NCBI GenBank assembly: GCA_046759445.1
Contig: JBHICG010000025.1
Coordinates: 4,625 to 36,624, forward strand
Reading direction: 5' to 3'
DNA from: Candidatus Scalinduaceae bacterium
GTDB lineage: Bacteria; Planctomycetota; Brocadiia; Brocadiales; Scalinduaceae
Length of the DNA: 32,000 nt
Positions within the stretch are counted from its first letter, which is position 1. Each line of letters starts with the position of its first letter. The notes below the pieces were generated by a model. The model ran no database searches. It was not told the origin of the DNA and was given only the letters and a program-made list of their open reading frames with translations. Of this stretch, positions 11,120 to 32,000 are shown piece by piece. The position numbers and the translations under genes were made by a program.

Positions 11120-13237
11120 TTACATGTTACTTACTAAAAAACTCTCTGATGATGGAATATCAACTACAAACTTTGTAGCTGATTCCGTACTCTCCACCTG
11201 AATCATACCCCCCACTTCCTCAAGCTTCTTTTTTACAATCGCCAATCCCAGACCAGTTCCAGTTTGTTTGGTTGTATAGAATGGTTCAAATATTTTATTG
11301 ATATTTTCTTCGGAGATACCGAGCCCTGTATCTTTAAAAATTACCCTAATATAATCACCCTCCCGTTCATAGCTGACAGAAATTGTCAATCTTCCTCCTG
11401 TTAACATAGCTTGAATGGCATTATGAATAATATTGAAGAAGACTTCCTTCAATGACGCTTCATCTGTCATAATTACAGGTATACTATCTGAAACTTCTAA
11501 ATTTATAACAATATTATTCATTGTTGCTTCATGCTTTATAACAACAATTACTTTATTTATTACATCATCAATCTTAACATCGGTATTTTTATCACCCTGT
11601 GGTTTAGCAAACTCCAAAAGTTGGTTTACAACTTTTGTTAAACGATCTATTTCCTCAACAATTATTGAAAGGCTTTTCTTTGTTTTATAATTATCCTTAA
11701 AATCCTCACTCAAAACCTGAACAATAGCTTTAATTGAACTCAAAGGATTCTTAACCTCATGAGCGACACTAGTAGATAGCCTCCCCAGACTAGATAATTT
11801 TTCGTTTTCATAAATCCTCCTCTCTAACTGTAGCTTTTCATCAATGAGCTCAGCTTTGGCTATTGCAGAACTAATTTGATTTGCAATAATCATTAACTGT
11901 TCAAGGTTATCGGCTGGCAATCTTAAACCCCTTATAGATTTACCAAGAGACAGCAAGCCTATTAACTTTCTATCCTTAAAAACAGGAAATATAAAAAACG
12001 CCTCCAACTGTTTCATCTCATTTATTATGGCAACATCTGTGACTTCATGTCTGTCAAGCACCGTAATCTCACCTTTATCAAAATTTTTTATTATATTTAA
12101 GATATCGTCTCTTGCCATAAAAGCACCCTTTCTGTATCCAATAACTTGTATTCTGCCACCCTTAAAGAGCACCAAACTAACGTTTTTAATTGCCGTTGCC
12201 TTTTTTATCGACTCTACAACATACTCCAATAAAAGTGATAAGTTTATCAGTAAATCCGCACCAATCTGATGGCTCAAATCATTTAGAAGATATTCGCTGT
12301 CGGCGATCCTCCTAAAAAGTAATTTTCGCATTAAGCCCTGGACTTTTTCTTTCAATTTTGGAAACCAATAAACCAGTGCTATAACAAACACCGCTTCCGA
12401 CACCTTTACATTAACTGAATAATTAAGTTCAAGATATTTACTCAACTGCTTTATTCCAAAATAATAAAGACAAATAACTATCAATACCAAGAAAGAATAA
12501 AACATACTGCGCCTGAGAACAAATTCCATATAATTGTAACGATACACATAATAAGAGAATATAATACTTGGAAAGATTGAGGAAAGCATTGTAGCCAGGA
12601 TTAAGTAATCACCAATATAAGAAATAGCTCTTCCTTCAAAAAGGATCGTAAACGCAACAAGTAATGCAATGAAAATAAGAATCCAGAAAATAGAGAAGTG
12701 GAATTTCCGCTCTTCCACCTCTTCTACCTTGGCAGAAAGTATGCGTGAGATAACGGCAGACGTAAATATCGAAAATAGTAACCATACAACAAAAGGTTTA
12801 ACAAAAGGTGACACGCTCATTAGCATACGGGTTTCTTCCGAAAATATTTGCATTTCGGCTGATAACAAGAGCGGAATAATAGGAAGGTAGATTACGGTAA
12901 CCATGGACAATCTTACTATTTTTTTGATATTCCAGCCGCTCTCTAGAAGAAACAATATAGCCGTATGCATAAGTAAGCTAGGCATCAAACCCATTCCCGC
13001 ACTTGCAACTGCGTTTGATGATTGAGTGATTACATAAATATTTTTTCCAAAAAGCATTATACTAAAAAGTGAGACGGCATTACCATAATGCCACATTGCA
13101 ACACTTATTACGAGACATAAAAAGACTAATTCACTTCCCTTTTTATTCTTCCTTTGGACTATAAGAATTGAAAGTACTGTATGAAGGATGGAGCCCAGAA
13201 TGAAACCTATTAATGCTACTATTTCAATCAATGTCAT
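11120..13237 (-). CDS. Sensor histidine kinase with polytopic membrane N-domain and GAF-like domain
   Basis: 705 aa. About 300 aa of repeated hydrophobic helices, then a central GAF-like region. H-box SVAHEVKNPLSSI, N-box NIIHNAIQAM, G-boxes DTGLGI and GTGLGLAIV. There is a 12-nt gap to the downstream response regulator, so operon pairing is likely. Confidence 0.88.
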   Translation of the reverse strand: MTLIEIVALIGFILGSILHTVLSILIVQRKNKKGSELVFLCLVISVAMWHYGNAVSLFSIMLFGKNIYVITQSSNAVASAGMGLMPSLLMHTAILFLLESGWNIKKIVRLSMVTVIYLPIIPLLLSAEMQIFSEETRMLMSVSPFVKPFVVWLLFSIFTSAVISRILSAKVEEVEERKFHFSIFWILIFIALLVAFTILFEGRAISYIGDYLILATMLSSIFPSIIFSYYVYRYNYMEFVLRRSMFYSFLVLIVICLYYFGIKQLSKYLELNYSVNVKVSEAVFVIALVYWFPKLKEKVQGLMRKLLFRRIADSEYLLNDLSHQIGADLLINLSLLLEYVVESIKKATAIKNVSLVLFKGGRIQVIGYRKGAFMARDDILNIIKNFDKGEITVLDRHEVTDVAIINEMKQLEAFFIFPVFKDRKLIGLLSLGKSIRGLRLPADNLEQLMIIANQISSAIAKAELIDEKLQLERRIYENEKLSSLGRLSTSVAHEVKNPLSSIKAIVQVLSEDFKDNYKTKKSLSIIVEEIDRLTKVVNQLLEFAKPQGDKNTDVKIDDVINKVIVVIKHEATMNNIVINLEVSDSIPVIMTDEASLKEVFFNIIHNAIQAMLTGGRLTISVSYEREGDYIRVIFKDTGLGISEENINKIFEPFYTTKQTGTGLGLAIVKKKLEEVGGMIQVESTESATKFVVDIPSSESFLVSNM

Positions 13238-13546
13238 AGCCTAAGAAATATGCGTCAATTTAGAAAATATTTGAAAAGTTTTTATTAAAATGTTTCACAG
13301 GTTATTGTGCTTCCGATACGTTGATTTAATAGTTGGATGGATTCTGAAAAAACAAATCAAGTGAAAATGTTTTATGCATTATGAAATAAAATTTATATTA
13401 TTATTAACCAAATTATCTGTCAATAAAAAAAGGCATTCAGCTATATAAAATAATAAATCAAGGTGTTAAGATACCTTGAAAACGATAATGAAATACATTC
13501 AGCACAGGATTCAGGATGACAATTATAGTGTTCCCGCAACATACTA

Positions 13547-14569
13547 CTAAAGATATAGATAATCATTTACTTTACAAGTATGGCAAATTGTTTCTGTTTT
13601 GTTTTTACGACCCAGAACTTCCTTACGTGCTGAAATGTATTTTTCATTATTCCATATTTCCTTAAATGAATTCTCCTTAATATTACCAAAAGAGTGAGCT
13701 TCGCTATATACAGAACAACATGGCAAAATAGAGCCATCCCAATTTATAACTGTCTCAGTCCATAATTGATTACAATTAAATTTATTTTTTGGTTTCTTTT
13801 CAGTCATGTTAAATATGTTATACTCTGGAATAAGAGGTAACCATTTATAATCACGTTCAATTGATTTTTCAGCAGTTTCAAAAATTTCTTTGCCCATATC
13901 GGTACGCATCTTGTTTATGACTAACTTTATGCCTATTTCCTTTGCCAAGGCTCTAGCCTTTTCAATCTCATGTTCATTATGTCTGAAGACATGAAACAAC
14001 CATATTATCTCAGTATAACGATTTTTTAACTTTTTCTTTTTTTCAATTAAAAGTTTCATATTTGATATAACTCTATTAAAGTCTCCATCAATATGATAAG
14101 TTGAATAAGTTGAATTACTGGCGCCATCGCAAGAAATATATATTTTTTGTAAATTAGCTATAATTAAGGCTTCAGCTAGAGAATCCTCAATGGGTAAACT
14201 CAGATTTGTGCTTATTTTTACGGCTATTTTTTTTTCGTTAGCATACTCTACCATTTTTATAATTTCTTTGTTTATAAGAGGTTCTCCCCAATTATACAAC
14301 CTTACCAAGATTAGATTTTTACCTATTTCGTCAATAAATTGTTTAAAATCAGAAAAGGATAGGAATCCTTTTCTGGCAGAATCATCTCTTTGCCCTGTAG
14401 GACAAAGTGGACAACGAAGGTTACATATATTACCTGAATCTATAGTAATCTTGGCAGGATAGTAATAAAGGCGCACGGAACCTATTGCATACTGAATTCT
14501 ACTCATCAAAAGATTATATAATTTTCTTATACTAAAAACGCTTATGCGCCTCCACAACTTATGAGACAT
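13547..14569 (-). CDS. Radical SAM enzyme with C-terminal SPASM/twitch-like auxiliary cluster motif
   Basis: 340 aa. Canonical CxxxCxxC (CNLRCPLCPTG) near the N-terminus. The C-terminus has CNQLWTETVINWDGSILPC (C-x12-G-x4-C) followed by a terminal CHTC. Transcribed divergently from the ACP operon. Confidence 0.8.
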   Translation of the reverse strand: MSHKLWRRISVFSIRKLYNLLMSRIQYAIGSVRLYYYPAKITIDSGNICNLRCPLCPTGQRDDSARKGFLSFSDFKQFIDEIGKNLILVRLYNWGEPLINKEIIKMVEYANEKKIAVKISTNLSLPIEDSLAEALIIANLQKIYISCDGASNSTYSTYHIDGDFNRVISNMKLLIEKKKKLKNRYTEIIWLFHVFRHNEHEIEKARALAKEIGIKLVINKMRTDMGKEIFETAEKSIERDYKWLPLIPEYNIFNMTEKKPKNKFNCNQLWTETVINWDGSILPCCSVYSEAHSFGNIKENSFKEIWNNEKYISARKEVLGRKNKTETICHTCKVNDYLYL

Positions 14570-14865
14570 CTTTTAATAAGGAAATGTAAAACATCACAAA
14601 TAAAAAGGATAATTTAAGAAAGCCATGAAGTTTTTTTGACTAATATCAAACGCGGAAAATAAACTATGTAATCCTCCTGAAAATACTTGCCTGACGGCAG
14701 ACAGGGAGGAAAAACACACCTTATCTTGCGGGGAACCAGTTTTTATACAATTTTAATAATTCGTGGTGACCCGAGAGGTATGAATGTTACACAAAAAAGT
14801 GCTTTCATGGCCTATAGGAACGATATCAAAAAGCATATTCCAAGTCAACTCGATTAATCTCAAAA

Positions 14866-14912
14866 ATTGACATAAGATTGTTATTGACATCTCTTTGTAA
14901 GTTTGTTAAGTT
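14866..14912 (+). promoter_or_regulatory. Candidate sigma-70-type promoter or operator upstream of the ACP operon (two ATTGACAT direct repeats)
   Basis: ATTGACAT occurs at 14866-14873 and 14883-14890, each containing the TTGACA -35 consensus. A weak -10-like TAAGTT lies 17 nt after the second box (14907-14912). No experimental support; the -10 is poor. Confidence 0.2.
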
Positions 14913-15094
14913 CCCGCATCCATCTTTTTTCTGAAATGTGTAGCATATTTAATTCACTTAATTACACAAACATATCTTAATATATAATAGTGGTTTAAAA
15001 CCCGAACTAAGTCAAAATAAAGTAAATTATTTGATTTCACTAAAAAGTTTGTTGTCTTAAACTTTTGTAGGTTTGTTTTTTGGGAGGTATTATA

Positions 15095-15346
15095 TTGGAT
15101 ATATCAAAAGAAGTCACTTCAATTGTTGCTGAAGTTACTGAGTTAGACGAAAAAGAAATATGGGAAAAAAGAGACGCCGATTTTTTTAAGGAATTAGAAA
15201 TAGATTCTTTGTTGGCATTAGAAATACTGGCGCTCATTGAAAAAAAATTCAAAATCCAAATACCAGAAGAAAAACTAGTCGACATTACCTCATTAAATGC
15301 AACAATTGAAATGACAAAATCAACGTTGGAAGAAAATGCAAAATAG
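15095..15346 (+). CDS. Acyl carrier protein (dedicated, cluster-associated)
   Basis: The track ORF starts at TTG 15080. I prefer TTG 15095 because GGGAGG at 15082-15087 sits 7 nt upstream. The phosphopantetheine attachment motif EIDSLLALE (DSL serine) lies in a four-helix-sized protein of about 83 aa. The start codon choice is uncertain. Confidence 0.85.
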   Translation: MDISKEVTSIVAEVTELDEKEIWEKRDADFFKELEIDSLLALEILALIEKKFKIQIPEEKLVDITSLNATIEMTKSTLEENAK

Positions 15347-15430
15347 CCATATATACTTTTTGCCTCCGCACCTCTTTCATGAATTTTAAAACAGTCCGTT
15401 TATGACCTTAAACAAGAAAGGTTTTTATAA

Positions 15431-15880
15431 ATGTCGAGTTTTGAGGAAATAAAGAAACTGATTCCTCAAAAAAATCCATTCTTATTTATTGATAAAGTTA
15501 TTGATTTCCAAAAAGAAAGGAAGATTGTTTGTCTAAAAAATGTCTCTGGTAATGAACCATTCTTCGTTGGGCACTTTCCAGATTTTGCCATAATGCCAGG
15601 AGTCCTAATCTTAGAAGCCCTGGCACAAGCCTCAATCTTACTCTTCAAAAAAAGTTTTAATACCGACAAGGATAAAGATAAGGTCTTTTTATTAGGCTCT
15701 GCTGACATCCGTTTTACAAAACCTGTTTTTCCAGGCGACCAACTTATTTTAGAAATAGAGGCTGAAAAAATAATCTCTAGAGCCGCAATAATAAAGGGTA
15801 TAGCCAGAGTAGGAGAAAAGGTAGTTTCAAAAGCTACATTAAGTTTTGGTATTGCAGAAAAAGAATCTCTAAATGATTAA
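15431..15880 (+). CDS. fabZ: 3-hydroxyacyl-ACP dehydratase FabZ-like
   Basis: 149 aa hotdog-fold protein with the FabZ signature FFVGHFPDFAIMPGVLILEALAQ (catalytic His and Glu context). Confidence 0.9.
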   Translation: MSSFEEIKKLIPQKNPFLFIDKVIDFQKERKIVCLKNVSGNEPFFVGHFPDFAIMPGVLILEALAQASILLFKKSFNTDKDKDKVFLLGSADIRFTKPVFPGDQLILEIEAEKIISRAAIIKGIARVGEKVVSKATLSFGIAEKESLND

Positions 15881-25455: not shown

Positions 25456-25680
25456 TCATAATATATTACGTGCTTCTTTTAGAAAATCTTCCTGAATTAT
25501 TTTCAAAAGATTTCTTGCTAGTTCGATATGACCCTTTTCTTCATTACTGATTGATTGTAAGGTATCAATGATGATTTTATCATCAAGTTCTTTGATACAA
25601 TCATCGTATAATGACTTGGCATCTTCTTCAAACTTTAGAACCCTTTGGAATATACTGGAAAGTGATTCACTAGAATACAT
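25456..25680 (-). CDS. Small helical protein, possible ferritin-like/rubrerythrin-like half-domain
   Basis: 74 aa, predicted two long helices. Helix 1 has LKFEEDAKSLY and helix 2 has NEEKGHIELARNLL (an ExxH motif), the arrangement used by di-iron four-helix-bundle proteins. Weak, motif-level evidence only. Confidence 0.3.
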   Translation of the reverse strand: MYSSESLSSIFQRVLKFEEDAKSLYDDCIKELDDKIIIDTLQSISNEEKGHIELARNLLKIIQEDFLKEARNIL

Positions 25681-25912
25681 TTTTATTACTCTCTTTTACA
25701 TCCTGTATTAATTTTTCTATTACATTTTTGTGTCTTTGTGTATCATCCCTTAATTTCGTTATTATTACCTTTATTTTCTCTTTTTTTTCTTCACTTAACC
25801 ACTCGTAATATTTAAGTGAGTTAATAGTATAATCATAGAAGTGATTGTTTGCTTCTTCTTCGCATTCCAGAGCGTTAAGTAGCGTTTTGATAAGGATTTT
25901 TTTCTTAATCAT
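25670..25912 (-). CDS. Small helical protein, paralogous in architecture to the downstream 74-aa gene
   Basis: 80 aa, two predicted helices (ALECEEEANNHFYDY and LRDDTQRHKNVIEKL). Its stop overlaps the downstream gene's start by 11 nt (ATGTATTCTAG). Coding status is supported mainly by that coupling and its helical periodicity. Confidence 0.3.
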   Translation of the reverse strand: MIKKKILIKTLLNALECEEEANNHFYDYTINSLKYYEWLSEEKKEKIKVIITKLRDDTQRHKNVIEKLIQDVKESNKNVF

Positions 25913-25962: not shown

Positions 25963-27507
25963 ATGAGTTATCCACTATTTGTTAAGAGAGATATAGATGG
26001 TTTTTTTGGTCTTGCCATCGATAATCTTATCCAATTAATACTCATTGTGAGTTTTTGCAAGACGCTTTGCGGTATGCCTGACGAACTTGTCTTCGGTGTA
26101 ATACTTCCCGGATCAGCTATTTCAATACTCCTGGGAAACCTTTTCTACTCATGGCAGGCAAGAAAGCTCGCAATCAAAACAAAAAGAAATGACGTAACAG
26201 CATTACCATACGGCATAAACACTGTTAGTCTTTTTGCCTTCATCTTCTTTATAATGCTTCCCGTTTATGAGGATACAAAAGACCCATACCTGGCATGGAA
26301 GATTGGAATGATTGCCTGTTTCCTTAGCGGAGTGATAGAGATGTTGGGGGCGTTGATTGGGGAAAGCCTGAGGCGGATTACTCCAAGGGCTGCCTTGCTG
26401 TCCACACTTGCGGGAATTGCAATTACATTTATTTCTATGGATTTTGCATTTAAGATATTTGAAAAACCCATAATAGCCCTGTTCCCGCTTGCGTTTATCC
26501 TTGTCCAGTATTTTTCAAAAGTAAGATTTCCATTGGGACTACCAGGAGGCCTAATTGCCATTGTCGTTGGCACAGGATTGGCCTGGCTGCTGGGTTATAT
26601 GGATGGTGGAAGCACTGTGACTGAAAATGGAGTCTTTCATTTTTCTCCACCGCACTTTAGCGGGGCAAGTATGATAGACATAATCCAGAGCAAATATATG
26701 CTTCAATATATATCTATCATTATTCCCATGGGAGTGTTCAATGTTGTGGGCTCTCTGCAAAATATTGAGAGTGCCGAGGCGGCAGGAGATAAGTATAACA
26801 CATTTTCATCACTATTAACTAATGGAATAGGTTCAGTTGTAGCATCAATATTTGGCAGTTGCTTCCCCACAACCATATATATAGGCCATCCCGGCTGGAA
26901 GGCAATAGGCGCCAGGGGCGGATATTCAATCCTGAACGGAATCTTTATAACAACCATATGTTTGACTGGATTTATAACCGTTATCCTCAAGGTTGTGCCA
27001 CTTGAAGCGGGAATAGGGATTTTATTATGGATAGGGATCGTAATAGTTGCACAGGCATTCCAGGAAACACCTAAACATCATGCTCCTGCCGTCGCCGTGG
27101 GTCTCTTCCCCGCAATTGCGGCATGGGGGTTGCTGATGGTTGAAAGTACTCTCAGGTCATCCGGGACTACCCTCTTTATCCTTGGCAAGGATGCATTTGC
27201 CAACAATCTGGCCATTCATGGAATGATATCACTCGAAAGAGGATTTATATTCACGTCCATGATACTAGCATCAATTTCAGTCTTTCTGATTGAAAAGAAA
27301 TTCCTGAGAGCATGTGCCTGGTCGCTTGGAGCAGCTCTGCTCTCTTACATAGGCGTTATCCATGCATACGCGCTCACACCTAATGGCGTGGTTAGTGTAT
27401 TTGGATTTGGGATGGCAAACGATTTCTCGATAGGTTATTGCTCCTTTGCCATACTATTCATTGCCATGTATTTTTATACACGTGGGAATGAGAAGATGTG
27501 TCCCTAA
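25963..27507 (+). CDS. Polytopic permease (possibly NCS2 / xanthine-uracil-vitamin C permease superfamily)
   Basis: 514 aa, about 12-14 hydrophobic helices throughout, noticeably more GC-rich than flanking DNA. The N-terminal DGFFGLAIDNLIQL pattern recalls a permease family annotated that way. The substrate is unknown. Confidence 0.45.
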   Translation: MSYPLFVKRDIDGFFGLAIDNLIQLILIVSFCKTLCGMPDELVFGVILPGSAISILLGNLFYSWQARKLAIKTKRNDVTALPYGINTVSLFAFIFFIMLPVYEDTKDPYLAWKIGMIACFLSGVIEMLGALIGESLRRITPRAALLSTLAGIAITFISMDFAFKIFEKPIIALFPLAFILVQYFSKVRFPLGLPGGLIAIVVGTGLAWLLGYMDGGSTVTENGVFHFSPPHFSGASMIDIIQSKYMLQYISIIIPMGVFNVVGSLQNIESAEAAGDKYNTFSSLLTNGIGSVVASIFGSCFPTTIYIGHPGWKAIGARGGYSILNGIFITTICLTGFITVILKVVPLEAGIGILLWIGIVIVAQAFQETPKHHAPAVAVGLFPAIAAWGLLMVESTLRSSGTTLFILGKDAFANNLAIHGMISLERGFIFTSMILASISVFLIEKKFLRACAWSLGAALLSYIGVIHAYALTPNGVVSVFGFGMANDFSIGYCSFAILFIAMYFYTRGNEKMCP

Positions 27508-27520
27508 CCAAGGGTAGGCA

Positions 27521-27612
27521 TAATCCCTGTTTAACGGTCGCTGTCCCTAGTTTCTGTCGTCCCTAGTTTCTGTCTAATCCCTGTTTAACGGTCGCTGTCC
27601 CTAGTTTCTGTC
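27521..27612. repeat. Tandem direct repeat (54-nt period) with nested 16-17-nt sub-repeat
   Basis: TAATCCCTGTTTAACGGTCGCTGTCCCTAGTTTCTGTC occurs identically at 27521-27558 and 27575-27612. The 16 nt between them (GTCCCTAGTTTCTGTC, 27559-27574) repeat the 3' part of the unit. A partial AATCCTGT follows at 27613. Confidence 0.9.
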
Positions 27613-27788
27613 AATCCTGTAGCTTTAAGATATTGAGCAGCTATTGCTTCCGGTGATGAGATTGAGCAAGGGGTTGCAGTCTAATTCGGATACAAAGATT
27701 TGATTGATGTATTAAAGGTGAAAAAATCATCATAAAAGGGTTGTATCCCTTTCAGCCCTTTTCGAAATTATTCAGAGAGTGATCCTAG

Positions 27789-28469
27789 ATGGTAAGGGCA
27801 TGCGATATTATTAATAAAAAATATAATAAACTAGAAAGTAAATACGGCTCCACACGCTCAACACTCTTTGGGAGATTTTACGAGAAGATAATATCCAAAT
27901 GGTTAGAAGAAAGAGAAAAGTATACTCTAGAACGATGGCCAAATAATAAAGTAGTGCGTAAGCCACGGATTTATTGGAACAATATCTTCTTAGACAATTT
28001 TAACTTTAGTAAAGATTGGTTTGTAAGAGATGAAGTTGAGGAATCTCTGAATTTTTTGAAGAACAAAAAAAGTCATTGCACACTCGACGGTACTTTTAAG
28101 AAAAATGACAAGTTCTACATATGGGAAGCAAAAAATTGGCCTTTGTATCCAGAAAAAGGACCAAAACATCAAATAAGGAAATATCTTACTAACAATCCTT
28201 GGATATTTGACAAGAAGTTTGACATTGGCGGTAAAAATTACGAAATATCAGGATTTTTATTTTCTTTCTGGAATATGGAACTAAAGGATAAAACAGAAAT
28301 CGAAGAAGGAGTAAACCAAATTATAGGAGAAAATAAATTTAAAATTATTCTAACTCAAGCGATATTAGATGATTGTTTAGGTAAACAATATGACTGGTAT
28401 CGTGAAATAATAAAGGAAGAGAAAGCAAATATTGATGATTTTTTTGATCAGCTTCTTAGTAGAAAATAG
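27789..28469 (+). CDS. PD-(D/E)xK nuclease-fold protein (restriction-endonuclease-like), uncharacterised
   Basis: 226 aa. An N-terminal helix with conserved acidic residues (FYEKIISKWLEE) is followed by HCTLD(100)G and FYIWE(113)AK(115)NW, giving the D...ExK signature in strand-like contexts. No closer family was recognised. Confidence 0.5.
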   Translation: MVRACDIINKKYNKLESKYGSTRSTLFGRFYEKIISKWLEEREKYTLERWPNNKVVRKPRIYWNNIFLDNFNFSKDWFVRDEVEESLNFLKNKKSHCTLDGTFKKNDKFYIWEAKNWPLYPEKGPKHQIRKYLTNNPWIFDKKFDIGGKNYEISGFLFSFWNMELKDKTEIEEGVNQIIGENKFKIILTQAILDDCLGKQYDWYREIIKEEKANIDDFFDQLLSRK

Positions 28470-28520
28470 TCCTTTCAAATAGGCATTATCACCTAATAGA
28501 GTGAACCTTCTTTAAAAAAC

Positions 28521-29393
28521 ATGAATAGTGTCAAATGGTTACAGTTTTTTGAGCGAATTAGCTGTTTTTACAGGCAAATGCTAATGCTCCCATTATGGAG
28601 TAAATATCCACATCATGTCACAGACGGATGGGACTCTTTAGCTATATTTTTAGAGGGCTATGCTTTTGAAAGACAAGGAAGACGACCGGATTATTCTCAT
28701 GTAGCGATAGATGCTTTGATTGATTGCAAAAAGCAAAATAATGGTAACCTGACTACAGGCATAGTTAATTATGTTTGGCAGAGCTTTAAGGATAAACTTA
28801 GTAATAAAAGTTTAAATTATCAAAATAATCCTCTGTGTCCAAGAGGAAAGGAATATTCAAAACGTTACAAACAATCTATAAAGCATTGTCACACTCAACA
28901 ACCTTCCTTAATAGAGATGTTCTTGGAAAAAATTATGCCACAGGAATTAACCTTAACATCATATTTTCAAAATCGAATTATAGAAGATAATGAATCTCGA
29001 CCTTCATACGATTTATTGAAATCTGTTCAAGGAATAGGGAAAAAGGTTTCCTCTTTTTATCTTAGAGACTTAACAGATATGATGGATAGCATCACTCTTG
29101 AAAAGTTAAAAGATAGGCAACTGTTACAACCAATAGATATTTGGGTTGAAAGAACAGTGAAAATTTTAGCTGAAAGTAAGAATATGAAAGAAGATGAAAT
29201 AGCCAAATGGATAGTCGATAATTCAATACCACATATAAATCCTGAACGGGTTAATATGGGGATTTGGTTTTTCTGTTCTTCAATAGCAGGTAGTGAGTAT
29301 AGACTTAATAACGCTTTAATCAGTTTGAATAATGCTCAAACCTTAGTAAATCTTTTTATGAATAGAATTAAAAATGTGTGTAAAGATTGCTAA
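28521..29393 (+). CDS. HhH-GPD superfamily DNA glycosylase-like protein (Ogg/AGOG-like), uncharacterised
   Basis: 290 aa. LKSVQGIGKKVSSFYLRDL (residues 166-184) resembles the helix-hairpin-helix of Ogg/EndoIII enzymes (GxGxK...FLRN). Lys175 sits at the position of the catalytic Lys in bifunctional glycosylases. A downstream QPID(206)IWVERT resembles the catalytic-Asp segment (VDxHV). The HhH-to-Asp spacing is longer than in EndoIII. Confidence 0.45.
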   Translation: MNSVKWLQFFERISCFYRQMLMLPLWSKYPHHVTDGWDSLAIFLEGYAFERQGRRPDYSHVAIDALIDCKKQNNGNLTTGIVNYVWQSFKDKLSNKSLNYQNNPLCPRGKEYSKRYKQSIKHCHTQQPSLIEMFLEKIMPQELTLTSYFQNRIIEDNESRPSYDLLKSVQGIGKKVSSFYLRDLTDMMDSITLEKLKDRQLLQPIDIWVERTVKILAESKNMKEDEIAKWIVDNSIPHINPERVNMGIWFFCSSIAGSEYRLNNALISLNNAQTLVNLFMNRIKNVCKDC

Positions 29394-29936
29394 ACTATAG
29401 GGAAAGTTCCATCAACGCTATACATATAAGGACAGACACTTTTTATTGCTTATTCTGGGTCAGGAGAGCAGGAGAGGGGTCAAGTCCTTCTTTGACTACA
29501 TGAAAAATATAGGGTTAGGTCTTGCAATATCACAAATAAACATAATCACATCTTTTTACCTTTGCCCCCTTTACTTCGGCAAGGAACAAATAAGGACCGT
29601 TTAAAAATTTATGAGGAAATACAATGGTAATTTGAAGTAGCTAAGAAAGAATGAAAGAAATTGTTTCGCAAGAAATTATAAAGAATAACCTGCATGCCTG
29701 TAGATCATCGAGAAATTCTTTTTGAAAATGCGAAATTACAATCTTTTGTACAATCAGGAAATTCGCCAAATGTTATATAGTTGTTGATATTTGTAGTATG
29801 TTTCTACATAATTACTTACATTGATTTGATTTGTGTTAAATAATTGATGCGAGATTGCAAAAAAAATCCATCTTTATCAAAAGAATAAAAAAAAAGTACA
29901 TATCGAGTATACATTATACTTTAAGGAATTATAAAT

Positions 29937-30266
29937 ATGAAACTTTCTATAAAAGAAAGAGCGATAGTTGAAGAATTCAGACAAATAATAAACGACAAAT
30001 TCCCTGATGAAATTATAGATGTATTGGTATTTGGCTCTAAAGCAAGGGGAGACGCAACGAAAGAATCAGATATTGATGTTTTAGTAATTACGTCATCAAA
30101 TAATTGGAAAAAAGGTGATGAAATTAGAGAGATCGGTTATGGACTAGACGATGAAATAGATTATAAATTATCAATTCAAGTTATTTCAAAATCACACCTT
30201 GATTATCTAAGGCAAAATAATTTTCAGTTTGTTGCAAATATAGAAAATGAAGGTATTATTGTATGA
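29937..30266 (+). CDS. Nucleotidyltransferase-domain antitoxin (MNT)
   Basis: 109 aa with the minimal nucleotidyltransferase signature VFGSKARGDATKESDIDVLV (GSxxRG...DxD). Overlaps the downstream HEPN gene by 4 nt. Confidence 0.85.
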   Translation: MKLSIKERAIVEEFRQIINDKFPDEIIDVLVFGSKARGDATKESDIDVLVITSSNNWKKGDEIREIGYGLDDEIDYKLSIQVISKSHLDYLRQNNFQFVANIENEGIIV

Positions 30267-30667
30267 AACATATCTATGAGGAAGAGATAAGACTAGAGAT
30301 AGAGAGAAGTAAAAAAGCATTGGATGCCGCTAAAAAGCTTTTTGAAGAAGAACTGTTTGAAGACGCAATTTCTCGTTCTTATTATGCGGTTTTACATGCA
30401 GCAAAGGCGGCTTTGCTTGGAGATCACATAATAGTTGATTCACATGAAGCAGTGAAAAGGCTCTTTGGTATGCATTTGGTCAAGACAGGAAAAGTTGATG
30501 CTAAATTCTCTAAGATTCTTCGAGAAGAGCAAGATGAACGTTTTTTGGCTGATTATGATGTATCATTTTCACCTGAAAAAGAACGCGTAGAAAAGAGAAT
30601 TAAAGACGCAGTGTGTTTTTTTGATGCAATGAGTTCATACCTTAAACAAAAGGATATTGATTTTTAA
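30263..30667 (+). CDS. HEPN-domain toxin
   Basis: 134 aa all-helical protein with the HEPN-family pattern (AISRSYYAVLHAAKAALL, RLFGMH as an Rx4H-like element, EEQDERFLADYD). ATGA overlap with the MNT gene at 30263-30266. Confidence 0.8.
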   Translation: MKHIYEEEIRLEIERSKKALDAAKKLFEEELFEDAISRSYYAVLHAAKAALLGDHIIVDSHEAVKRLFGMHLVKTGKVDAKFSKILREEQDERFLADYDVSFSPEKERVEKRIKDAVCFFDAMSSYLKQKDIDF

Positions 30668-30679
30668 CAATAATAACGA

Positions 30680-30700
30680 TTCGTTCCAAAGCTGAACGAA
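30680..30700. terminator. Hairpin in the convergent gap between the HEPN gene and proA
   Basis: TTCGTTC (30680-30686) pairs with GAACGAA (30694-30700) across a 7-nt loop. A T-rich tract follows only when read on the minus strand (downstream of proA). Short stem, so low confidence. Confidence 0.3.
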
Positions 30701-30778
30701 ATACAGTCAGGCGTAATCCTATTGTTGACGAATGATTCAATCCGCCAGGGTTATCTTTGCCATTTTTTCCAACGGATT

Positions 30779-32000
30779 TTACTGACGTATCTGCCCATTA
30801 CCGTGGACGATGTATTTGTATGATGTGAGCTCGTTCAGACCCATTGGACCACGGGCATGGAGTTTGTCTGTACTGATGCCAATTTCGGCTCCCATTCCGA
30901 ATTCATAACCATCGGTGAAGCGAGTGGATGCATTTACGTACACGGCTGCTGAATCAACCTCATCTGTGAATTTCTTCGCATTAGGTTCGTTCTCGGTTAT
31001 TATGGCATCCGAATGTGAGGAACCGTAAACTGTGATATGATCAATGGCCTCTTCAATAGAAGATACAATTTTTACTGAAAGTATCTTTTCCAGATACTCT
31101 GTTGACCAATCTTCTTCGGTGGCCGGTTTTATGTCAGGGAGAATCTTACGGCTCTTTTCACACCCCCTCAACTCGACCCCAGAATCTGATATACTCCTGG
31201 AAATATCTGAAAGGAATGTTTTTGATATCTTTTCATGCACCAGCATCGTCTCCATTGCATTACACGTACCCGGTCTCTGAATCTTTGCATTGAGGCATAC
31301 GTCCTTTGCCATGCTCAGATTGGCAAATTCATCTACATATATATGGCATATACCCTTAAAATGTTTAATTACGGGAATGGTTGAGTTCTCAACCACGTTT
31401 CGTATCAAACCCTCTCCACCTCGAGGAATCACCAAATCTACATATTCATCTGCCTTAAGAAGGCAGTCAACGGCCTCTCGATCAGTAGTTTCGATTACCT
31501 GAATGGCTTTTTTGTCAAGACCAACCTTTTCAAGTGCCAAACTCATTTGCTCGTAAATGGCAATATTGGAATTTATTGATTCCTTACCACCCCGAAGTAT
31601 TGTTGCATTGCCAGTCTTCAGGCAGAGAGAAGCAGCATCTGCTGTAACATTTGGTCTGGATTCATAGATAATTATTATAACGCCTATGGGCACTCTGACT
31701 TTTTGAATTTTTAAGCCATTTGGACGGACAATCTCTTCCAACATCTCACCAACAGGGTCTTTAAGGTTTATGACCTCTCTTATACCTTTTGCCATATCCT
31801 CTATTCGCGAATCCGTTAACCTCAACCTGTCAATCATGGCAGAAGATGAGCCAGCTTTTTCAGCGGCCTTTATGTCTTTTTCATTTTCTACCATTATGCT
31901 TGTCTTACCGTTCAAGAGATTGTGTGCCATTTGTTCAAGAGCGGCATTTTTTACTGAACTACTGGCAGTGGCCATTATGTTTGACGCTTTTTTGGCATCA
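30779..32000 (-). CDS. proA: Gamma-glutamyl phosphate reductase (partial; true N-terminus beyond the window end)
   Basis: Catalytic Cys context PGTCNAMETMLVH and ProA-like sequence throughout. The track ORF starts at Met 31975, but the frame stays open to 32000 (..DAKKASNI-MATASS..). That upstream stretch aligns with the usual ProA N-terminal AAKxAS region, so the start is off-window. Confidence 0.9.
   Translation of the reverse strand, partial: DAKKASNIMATASSSVKNAALEQMAHNLLNGKTSIMVENEKDIKAAEKAGSSSAMIDRLRLTDSRIEDMAKGIREVINLKDPVGEMLEEIVRPNGLKIQKVRVPIGVIIIIYESRPNVTADAASLCLKTGNATILRGGKESINSNIAIYEQMSLALEKVGLDKKAIQVIETTDREAVDCLLKADEYVDLVIPRGGEGLIRNVVENSTIPVIKHFKGICHIYVDEFANLSMAKDVCLNAKIQRPGTCNAMETMLVHEKISKTFLSDISRSISDSGVELRGCEKSRKILPDIKPATEEDWSTEYLEKILSVKIVSSIEEAIDHITVYGSSHSDAIITENEPNAKKFTDEVDSAAVYVNASTRFTDGYEFGMGAEIGISTDKLHARGPMGLNELTSYKYIVHGNGQIRQ

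Follow-up and report, generated by a model that had tools for sequence, protein, structure and literature searches.

Adjacent PD-(D/E)xK nuclease-like and HhH-GPD glycosylase-like genes in a Candidatus Scalinduaceae genome: probably two independent accessory genes rather than a base-excision restriction module

Introduction

Do two co-directional genes encoding a putative nuclease and a putative DNA glycosylase, found side by side in the genome of a Candidatus Scalinduaceae bacterium, form a two-component restriction system, or did they come to stand next to each other independently? The question is raised by a stretch of 32,000 nucleotides (nt) of contig JBHICG010000025.1 (GenBank assembly GCA_046759445.1, positions 4,625 to 36,624 of the forward strand), hereafter the window, in which a first-pass annotation made from the sequence alone had singled out the following open reading frames (ORFs), listed in window coordinates:

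27789-28469, + strand: ORF1, 226 aa, predicted PD-(D/E)xK-fold nuclease of an undescribed family
28521-29393, + strand: ORF2, 290 aa, divergent candidate DNA glycosylase/apurinic-apyrimidinic (AP) lyase, helix-hairpin-helix (HhH) GPD type, undescribed family

The ORF calls agree with the description of the two as co-directional genes separated by 51 nt, and the database proteins identical to ORF1 and ORF2 come from a Candidatus Scalinduaceae metagenome-assembled genome (MAG). The first-pass annotation had further proposed that the two enzymes act jointly as a base-excision restriction module, the glycosylase producing an AP site or nick and the nuclease turning it into a lethal break. If true, this pairing would represent a new two-component mechanism of base-excision restriction; the comparative evidence says otherwise. 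With a probability of roughly 0.72, ORF1 and ORF2 represent two unrelated and unannotated families, each most likely acting alone, which do not constitute a conserved two-gene system. What is new here is the two families themselves, both of known kinds, one a predicted HhH-GPD glycosylase/lyase and the other a predicted solitary PD-(D/E)xK nuclease.

Co-occurrence of the two families

The co-occurrence of the two families was surveyed in 57 genome loci sampled via conserved ORF2 peptides and 70 metagenome loci sampled via conserved ORF1 peptides, to which further loci were added for the closest homologues of ORF1 and ORF2. All loci were searched by tblastn with both proteins and by six-frame profile hidden Markov model (HMM) searches with both family profiles. 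Neither approach retrieved both families from the same locus in any of the 133 loci examined (63 of the ORF2 family and 70 of the ORF1 family). The flanking DNA searched for a partner exceeded 1.1 Mb in total and was adequate for detecting one: at least 300 bp of upstream flank was available in 60 of the ORF2-family loci and at least 900 bp in 54, while the downstream flank of ORF1-family loci reached at least 300 bp in 46 and at least 900 bp in 35.

The closest relatives of each gene conform to this pattern. The closest homologue of ORF1 (L132, 69% identity) is followed, 73 nt downstream, by an unrelated gene. The closest homologue of ORF2 (L133, 60% identity) has no ORF1 relative at its locus, its upstream gene being divergent, and the same holds for a further homologue (L134, 58% identity), which has a HicA toxin gene upstream. 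The first-pass annotation had itself stated that its proposal would be refuted if the genes were never seen together in other genomes, and in the loci searched a conserved pair was indeed never encountered elsewhere. Since ORF1 and ORF2 stand side by side in this one Scalinduaceae genome only, two independent accessory genes are the most likely explanation.

Genomic neighbourhoods of each family

The genes within two positions of each family member were annotated in bulk with Pfam and PADLOC, and the neighbours were clustered by BLAST. No recurrent partner emerged from this clustering for either the ORF1 or the ORF2 family, the few recurring neighbours being attributable to near-duplicate contigs or lineage synteny. 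The vicinity of ORF1 relatives included three DNA methyltransferases, three Mrr-type nucleases, two AIPR genes, two AbiU genes, and two integrases, the rest being core metabolism; that of ORF2 relatives included three methyltransferases, transposases, two MNT genes, two PDDEXK_5 and two PDDEXK_1 nucleases, the rest being core genes. Hints of mobility or defence exist for each family taken separately.

For ORF1, one such case is a relative with 58% identity (P0130, on a 25-kb contig of JGI 3300075153; L136 392-1063), which lies 22 nt behind a gene for an HTH-WYL-WCX (BrxR-like) regulator. The gene after it encodes 183 aa, and BrxA-BrxB-BrxC together with a second WYL regulator are found within 6 kb; this locus is a defence island. 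In two other loci (L137 3216-6618 and L138 1270-4672), a short ORF1-family member (205 aa) and an archaeal-type mutS are neighbours in divergent orientation, in an arrangement preceded by a conserved 47-aa ORF. A MutH-like role is conceivable for this subfamily.

The ORF2 family is found in a range of settings. Several close relatives are solitary genes with housekeeping neighbours, the contigs being 72-520 kb long, and in three Phycisphaerae/Sedimentisphaerales genomes a DeoC-family aldolase gene lies downstream. HicA and DUF2283 are located on opposite sides of the ORF2 relative in L134, and a DUF6036 nucleotidyltransferase gene lies upstream of the one in L006. In L001 (60-1736) and L002 (564-3085), a PDDEXK_5 nuclease gene precedes the ORF2 relative, with a large serine recombinase added in L002, and in L128 a weak UPF0102-like ORF flanks it. 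The PDDEXK_5 proteins of L001 and L002 share 87% identity, one bin being labelled 'archaeon' and the other 'Caldisericales', and the cassette suggests either a mobile element or mis-binning.

In the window itself, ORF2 is followed by a toxin-antitoxin (TA) pair, which the first-pass annotation had correctly recognised and which is annotated as follows:

29937-30266, + strand: MNT-type nucleotidyltransferase, antitoxin of a type VII TA pair (PF01909, NTP_transf_2, E 7.8e-13; PADLOC PDC-S09, E 3.9e-20)
30263-30667, + strand: HEPN-domain toxin (PF05168, E 1.5e-16), overlapping the MNT gene by 4 nt

The NCBIfam MntA match of the MNT gene (6.9e-7) is under that model's cut-off. The four genes share one orientation and one islet, an arrangement that might be read as a single larger multi-gene defence system composed of ORF1, ORF2, and MNT-HEPN. 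Some encouragement comes from a Pirellulales MAG (L007 8929-10816), in which an ORF2 relative of 44% identity has an MNT-HEPN pair immediately upstream and the HEPN protein falls into one BLAST cluster with that of the window, and also from the DUF6036 nucleotidyltransferase of L006. However, MNT-HEPN occurs beside the ORF2 family in only 2 of the 63 loci, with the gene order reversed between them, and the combination is found in none of the ORF1-family loci; ORF2 and the MNT gene of the window are 543 nt apart, the intervening DNA being non-coding. MNT-HEPN is, moreover, well established as a self-contained and very abundant TA module, and a four-gene system appears scarcely credible.

The small nucleases bear on the joint restriction module as well, since PD-(D/E)xK genes beside ORF2 relatives in L001 and L002, and possibly in L128, could be taken as partners of the same type. 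They were considered as remote ORF1 homologues and rejected (hhalign probabilities of 0.2% and 8%). Their frequency is no higher than that of the Mrr-type neighbours of ORF1 relatives, and for this reason they are best regarded as variable-region background. A bolder form of the idea holds that the ORF2 family is a horizontally spread defence clade of anaerobic-sediment bacteria and archaea, whose members might excise a virus-specific modified base and, in some islands, work with interchangeable, non-homologous small PD-(D/E)xK partners acting on AP sites or nicks. We regard this combination as highly improbable, and ORF1, the PDDEXK_5 proteins of L001/L002, and the UPF0102-like ORF of L128 are unlikely to be such partners, given that neighbours of this kind occur at background frequency. 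A defence role by itself has about even odds; if the ORF2 family were such a defence clade, immunity of the Dag type, discussed below, would be extended to archaea.

Several observations weigh against the independence of the two genes. Many of the metagenomic contigs are short, small PD-(D/E)xK genes of other families lie beside ORF2 relatives in about 3 of about 55 independent loci, and ORF1 and ORF2 are co-directional, 51 nt apart, and alike in GC content, so that they may be co-transcribed in this genome; a functional coupling specific to this genome may also exist, beyond what comparative data alone can address. To these the joint module can add that both enzymes appear catalytically intact, as judged from their invariant residues, and that the pair lies in an AT-rich islet with a TA pair adjacent. 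Against it stand the 0 of 133 loci with both genes, the closest relatives of each included, the lack of a conserved partner of any kind for either family, and the fact that the flanking nucleases elsewhere are not ORF1 homologues and occur at background frequency. On balance the joint action of the two enzymes in base-excision restriction is very unlikely. Adjacency within a variable islet is weak evidence for a system, even where the enzymes are mechanistically complementary.

ORF1, a predicted solitary PD-(D/E)xK nuclease

The first-pass annotation had described both genes as belonging to unrecognised families, and indeed neither ORF1 nor ORF2 gave a single match to Pfam-A, PADLOC-DB, or NCBIfam at E <= 1. 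Single-sequence searches of the PDB with either protein returned noise only (kinesin, NTPDase), and the ORF1 profile retrieved nothing from the PDB. In a collection of 5.8 billion proteins, 48 relatives of ORF1 were found.

The catalytic residues proposed at first pass, D100 and the E113-x-K115 motif, are well supported. Together with E32, they are invariant in an alignment of 41 ORF1 relatives (36-70% identity), in which D100, E113, and K115 are set within 'CTPDG...WEAKNWP'. In the AlphaFold2 (AF2) model (pLDDT 91), E32 lies on the first long helix (21-43), D100 starts the strand 101-105, and E113 and K115 are located at the end of the strand 108-114, forming the expected beta-hairpin; the layout of residues in the model is the canonical PD-(D/E)xK arrangement. 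The leading Foldseek matches in the PDB (Can2, VC1899, McrC, EcoO109I, Cdn1, Avs4, AF1548, and Bax1) are all PD-(D/E)xK nucleases, with weak values (E 0.013-0.15, TM 0.25-0.30), and those in the viral structure library BFVD are endonuclease-like (best E 5e-4). A PD-(D/E)xK nuclease fold is therefore supported by the model, the similarities being distant, and ORF1 is most likely a metal-dependent (Mg2+) endonuclease operating through E32, D100, E113, and K115.

The setting of the family gives some indication of how such an enzyme might be employed. Among 129 genes lying no more than two positions from ORF1 relatives at about 60 loci, 3 encode methyltransferases of the N6_N4 type, a cognate methyltransferase is missing from more than 90% of ORF1-family loci, and the islet contains no DNA methyltransferase. 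The assignment of ORF1 as the R subunit of a type II restriction-modification system was rejected, as no adjacent cognate methyltransferase is present. Because more than 90% of the loci are without a methyltransferase, a classical restriction enzyme is a less likely reading of ORF1 than a nuclease that stands alone (type IV-like) or is carried on islands, and ORF1 would act as a Mg2+-dependent endonuclease in the absence of a modifying partner.

In these respects ORF1 resembles the stand-alone PD-(D/E)xK defence nucleases, such as the Mrr-like AF1548 (1Y88), McrC, and the nuclease domains of Can2/Card1 and Avs4, with which it shares the core fold, the residue pattern E...PD...ExK, the usual lack of a methyltransferase partner, and an occasional location in a defence island (BREX with WYL regulators). 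It differs from them in having no Pfam or PADLOC family, no sensor or modification-reader domain, and no partner ATPase. A search of viral sequences retrieved one match to the ORF1 family among viral contigs and none among INPHARED phages, and for the ORF2 family none in either set; neither family is phage-borne.

ORF2, a candidate Ogg-type glycosylase/lyase

The first-pass annotation had likened ORF2 to glycosylase/lyases on the basis of an HhH motif with a catalytic Lys and Asp, and this reading is supported. Six residues, G171, K175, D183, P204, D206, and W208, are invariant among 47 ORF2 relatives (34-60% identity), and for K175 and D206 conservation is still 90% or more once the alignment is widened to reach 19% identity. 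The AF2 model (pLDDT 96, pTM 0.92) is nearly all helical. Its HhH motif (residues 160-187) consists of helix 160-167, the hairpin G171-I-G173, and helix 174-187, while P204-I-D206 caps the helix 207-217 and W208 completes the sequence P204-I-D206-I-W208.

The best Foldseek matches of the model are the Ogg-type enzymes CacOgg of C. acetobutylicum (3F10/3I0X) and MBOgg1 (4EJY), with probabilities of 0.90-0.97, and Mag2, EndoIII, MutY, and AlkA appear lower in the list. The ORF2-family HMMs align with Ogg chains of the PDB in register, GxGxK falling on 'GVGPKVA' and PxDxW on 'FPVDTWV', at E-values of 0.26 for the narrow and 0.017 for the broad profile. One family member has a sub-threshold match to PF22175 (Ogg-HhH, E = 0.003), and two carry the JGI labels 'thermostable 8-oxoguanine DNA glycosylase' and 'endonuclease III'. 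The top PDB match of the broad profile, serum albumin (E 5e-4), was set aside as spurious, since it arises from a helical stretch of the ORF2 family, 'FLxxYAFERxxRxPDY', aligned to albumin 'FLGMFLYEYARRHPDY'.

Compared with Ogg-type enzymes as a group (CacOgg, MBOgg1, Ogg2/AGOG, and PF22175), ORF2 has in common the Gly-x-Gly hairpin, the Lys starting the second helix, and the Pro-x-Asp cap, its motifs being in register with 'GVGPKVAD...FPVDTWV' of CacOgg. It differs from them in several ways: significant sequence matches are lacking (none in Pfam, and a best PDB profile E of 0.017), a 12-residue insertion between Lys and Asp extends their spacing to 31 residues instead of about 19, a beta-hairpin insert is present at residues 111-124, and the family has invariant motifs of its own (YAFERQG, SFYLRD, and NxGxW). 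The all-helical architecture of the model resembles that of Ogg2/AGOG, and judging from the model's secondary structure ORF2 shares with these enzymes the lack of the N-terminal beta-sheet domain of OGG1. Taken together, model and profiles support an Ogg-type HhH-GPD glycosylase fold through distant matches, and membership of ORF2 in any named family is not established.

A Lys in the second helix of the HhH motif marks bifunctional glycosylase/lyases, as exemplified by K120 of EndoIII and K249 of OGG1. ORF2 probably functions as a bifunctional glycosylase/lyase that is catalytically active and whose family is undescribed. In the mechanism that we infer, ORF2 would flip out a non-canonical base, and K175, located where the second HhH helix begins, would attack C1' to give a Schiff base with the assistance of D206, the helix-capping acid of the next helix. 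W208 and W249 would probably stack on the base, and the strand would then be nicked via beta-elimination.

The protein annotated by NCBI (P0001, 269 aa) begins at Met22 of ORF2 as called here. The stretch left out in this way, residues 1-21 (WLQFFE.VSCFY; window 28521-28586), is conserved among family members, F10 being kept at 90% or more, and the ATG at 28521 is therefore likely to be the true start. Cys15 and a C-terminal CxxC (C287 and C290; window 29379-29390) are kept in the close subfamily only. These three cysteines are too few for the Fe-S loop of EndoIII and MutY, and may form a metal site or a disulfide.

Distribution of the ORF2 family and its possible role

The ORF2 family is real but rare. 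More than 157 relatives were found at 90% clustering, and clustering at 50% identity leaves the family with 1,080 clusters out of 1.84 billion representatives. Its members are distributed patchily, at 30-55% identity, across many bacterial and archaeal phyla, the hosts being bacteria and archaea of anaerobic sediments. One member of 426 aa, annotated as 'hypothetical protein', is encoded on a 58-kb extrachromosomal element of Methanocaldococcus jannaschii (NC_001732.1 23295-24575; L142 6815-8095) and matches the ORF2-family profile with an hhalign probability of 99.6%. It keeps GVGDK...LRD...PID and has an extra C-terminal region of about 75 aa.

Paralogue pairs within one MAG were seen twice, L014/L015 (JAUWQP01) and L019/L045 (QNBQ01), the MAGs concerned being one Chloroflexota and one Poribacteria bin. 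Two members, P0101 (residues 1-193) and P0103 (about 290-443), carry large N- or C-terminal extensions, which have no Pfam match and hence no nuclease domain in Pfam.

Two types of target can be envisaged for such an enzyme. The first would be a phage-type modified base, implying defence as shown for the Dag enzymes, and the second an oxidised or alkylated purine, implying specialised repair. Patchy inter-domain spread, paralogues within MAGs, a plasmid copy, and an islet location are the reasons why ORF2 would fit a Dag-like defence lifestyle. Specialised repair stays an option because the closest folds are those of 8-oxoguanine glycosylases and many family members lie in core regions. We place defence slightly ahead of specialised repair as the role of ORF2; a mobile or defence-related location is borne out by the islet in the window and is mixed across the family.

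A more conservative explanation of the locus would make ORF2 a housekeeping, Ogg/AGOG-like repair glycosylase of anaerobes, directed at 8-oxoguanine or alkylpurines and not involved in defence, and ORF1 an unrelated nuclease of repair or recombination. The best structure and profile matches of ORF2, which are 8-oxoguanine glycosylases, speak for it, as do the JGI labels on two family members, the many members that stand by themselves in core-gene surroundings on large chromosomal contigs, the DeoC-family aldolase synteny in three Phycisphaerae/Sedimentisphaerales genomes, which suggests some vertical inheritance, and the ORF1 relative beside an archaeal mutS. On the other hand, a housekeeping function fits poorly with the rarity of the ORF2 family and its patchiness over many phyla, with its absence from this locus in close Scalindua relatives, with paralogues inside single MAGs and a plasmid-borne member, and with the repeated location of ORF2 relatives beside TA modules, recombinases, and transposases. 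We hold this explanation to be rather unlikely.

Solitary placement had been treated at first pass as a mark of housekeeping glycosylases. It can no longer serve as one, since the ORF2 family is itself solitary elsewhere and solitary HhH glycosylases are a published defence class (bioRxiv 10.1101/2025.10.29.685425). With ORF1 and ORF2 regarded as independent genes, both are reasonable single-gene candidates for defence screens, and ORF2 is also a candidate for a new base specificity, now that modified phage DNA is a known target of solitary HhH glycosylases.

Comparison with known systems

R.PabI employs base excision against foreign DNA, and its half-pipe fold is unlike the HhH type of ORF2. 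Brig1 resembles ORF2 in concept, as it too directs base excision against foreign DNA (PMC11078745), but it is a uracil-DNA glycosylase (UDG) family member and differs from ORF2 in fold.

A published parallel to a combination of nuclease and glycosylase is provided by the END nucleases, in which a PLD nuclease is fused to an inactivated sensor resembling EndoIII or Ogg and which attack modified phage DNA (PMC12191111). These enzymes, which join in fused form a nuclease and an HhH-glycosylase-like module for defence, lend the joint module proposed at first pass a precedent. Unlike them, ORF1 and ORF2 are separate genes whose pairing is not conserved, the catalytic Lys and Asp of ORF2 are invariant, and the nuclease is of the PD-(D/E)xK and not the PLD type.

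Dag1-Dag16, the defence-associated glycosylases described by Getz et al. (bioRxiv 10.1101/2025.10.29.685425), are solitary HhH enzymes that shield Vibrio and E. coli from 7-deazaguanine phages. In that study the defence-island score is reported as about 45% for the Dags, against 3% for housekeeping glycosylases. As far as their description allows a comparison, they are like ORF2 solitary, sequence-orphan members of the HhH superfamily with a Lys/Asp pair and a stacking Trp. They also share with ORF2, as placed in this window, a location in AT-rich, mobile or variable regions, the picture across the ORF2 family being mixed, and a bifunctional activity that is predicted or shown for the Dags and predicted for ORF2. 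Differences lie in their origin, the Dags being from Vibrio integrons whereas the ORF2 family occurs in anaerobic-sediment bacteria and archaea, and in the spacing of the catalytic residues, K118, D184, and W188 of Dag1 being unlike K175, D206, and W208 of ORF2. The bifunctional Dag1 fragments modified DNA without a partner (bioRxiv 10.1101/2025.10.29.685425), which argues further against the need for a nuclease beside ORF2.

Sis-HhH-GPD (PMC11754123) was considered as a relative of ORF2 and rejected: it is an Fe-S enzyme of the EndoIII-like type in which Ser replaces the Asp, and hence does not belong to the ORF2 family.

The islet and its genomic context

ORF1, ORF2, and the MNT-HEPN pair are enclosed between two core genes, and the region is delimited by the following features:

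25963-27507, + strand: NCS2 (AGZA) adenine/guanine/hypoxanthine permease, left flanking core gene
27508-30778, no strand: AT-rich islet of 3.3 kb between the NCS2 permease and the putative proA, containing ORF1, ORF2, and MNT-HEPN
27521-27612, + strand: block of direct repeats on the islet's left edge, with a 38-nt unit present twice and a 16-nt sub-unit present three times
30779-31975, - strand: aldehyde-dehydrogenase-family ORF, right flanking core gene

The permease orthologues in Scalindua, so named by their sources, are 81-93% identical, and the right flanking ORF is taken from its sequence to be proA (gamma-glutamyl phosphate reductase), an Aldedh-family gene occupying the corresponding place in the relative L140.

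The first-pass annotation had called this stretch conspicuously AT-rich. The compositional shift is real, as the islet, measured from the permease stop to the proA stop, has a GC content of 0.327, compared with a value of 0.362 in the window as a whole, while the flanking genes reach 0.43 and 0.42. It is, however, moderate, ranking in the lowest 9% of equal-sized windows, and a second AT-rich stretch at window positions 13000-15500 (GC 0.30-0.31) is as low as the islet.

Three Scalindua relatives (L139-L141) are syntenic with the window upstream of the islet, sharing kdsB, pyrG, DUF1844, small reverse ORFs, and the permease. Downstream of the permease, L139 has an amidase gene and priA, L140 a VWA/OmpA gene followed by an aldehyde-dehydrogenase-family gene (proA-like), divIC, and enolase, and L141 a PEP-mutase gene; neither the ORF1 nor the ORF2 family is present at this locus in any of the three. 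Because the gene order after the permease differs in every Scalindua relative and both genes are missing there, the islet is, as read from gene order, strain-specific, an insertion at a rearrangement hotspot or synteny breakpoint.

No tRNA gene was found in the window and no integrase gene in or beside the islet, and an Rfam scan of the islet returned no RNA family. The repeat block comes immediately behind the permease stop, where GC-rich DNA gives way to AT-rich DNA. Its 38-nt direct repeats are 100% identical, the 16-nt sub-unit is GTCCCTAGTTTCTGTC in three copies, and the observed counts were matched in 0 of 100 shuffles. Searches of the rest of the window, 141 fetched loci, and the viral contigs turned up no further copy of the repeat, whose RNA fold is unexceptional (z = -1.7). 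The repeat might represent an insertion scar or an att-like site.

On the other side of the permease, two small overlapping ORFs of 74 and 80 aa (window 25456-25912, - strand) give weak rubrerythrin/ferritin-like matches, and in all three Scalindua relatives examined they are positioned between DUF1844 and the permease.

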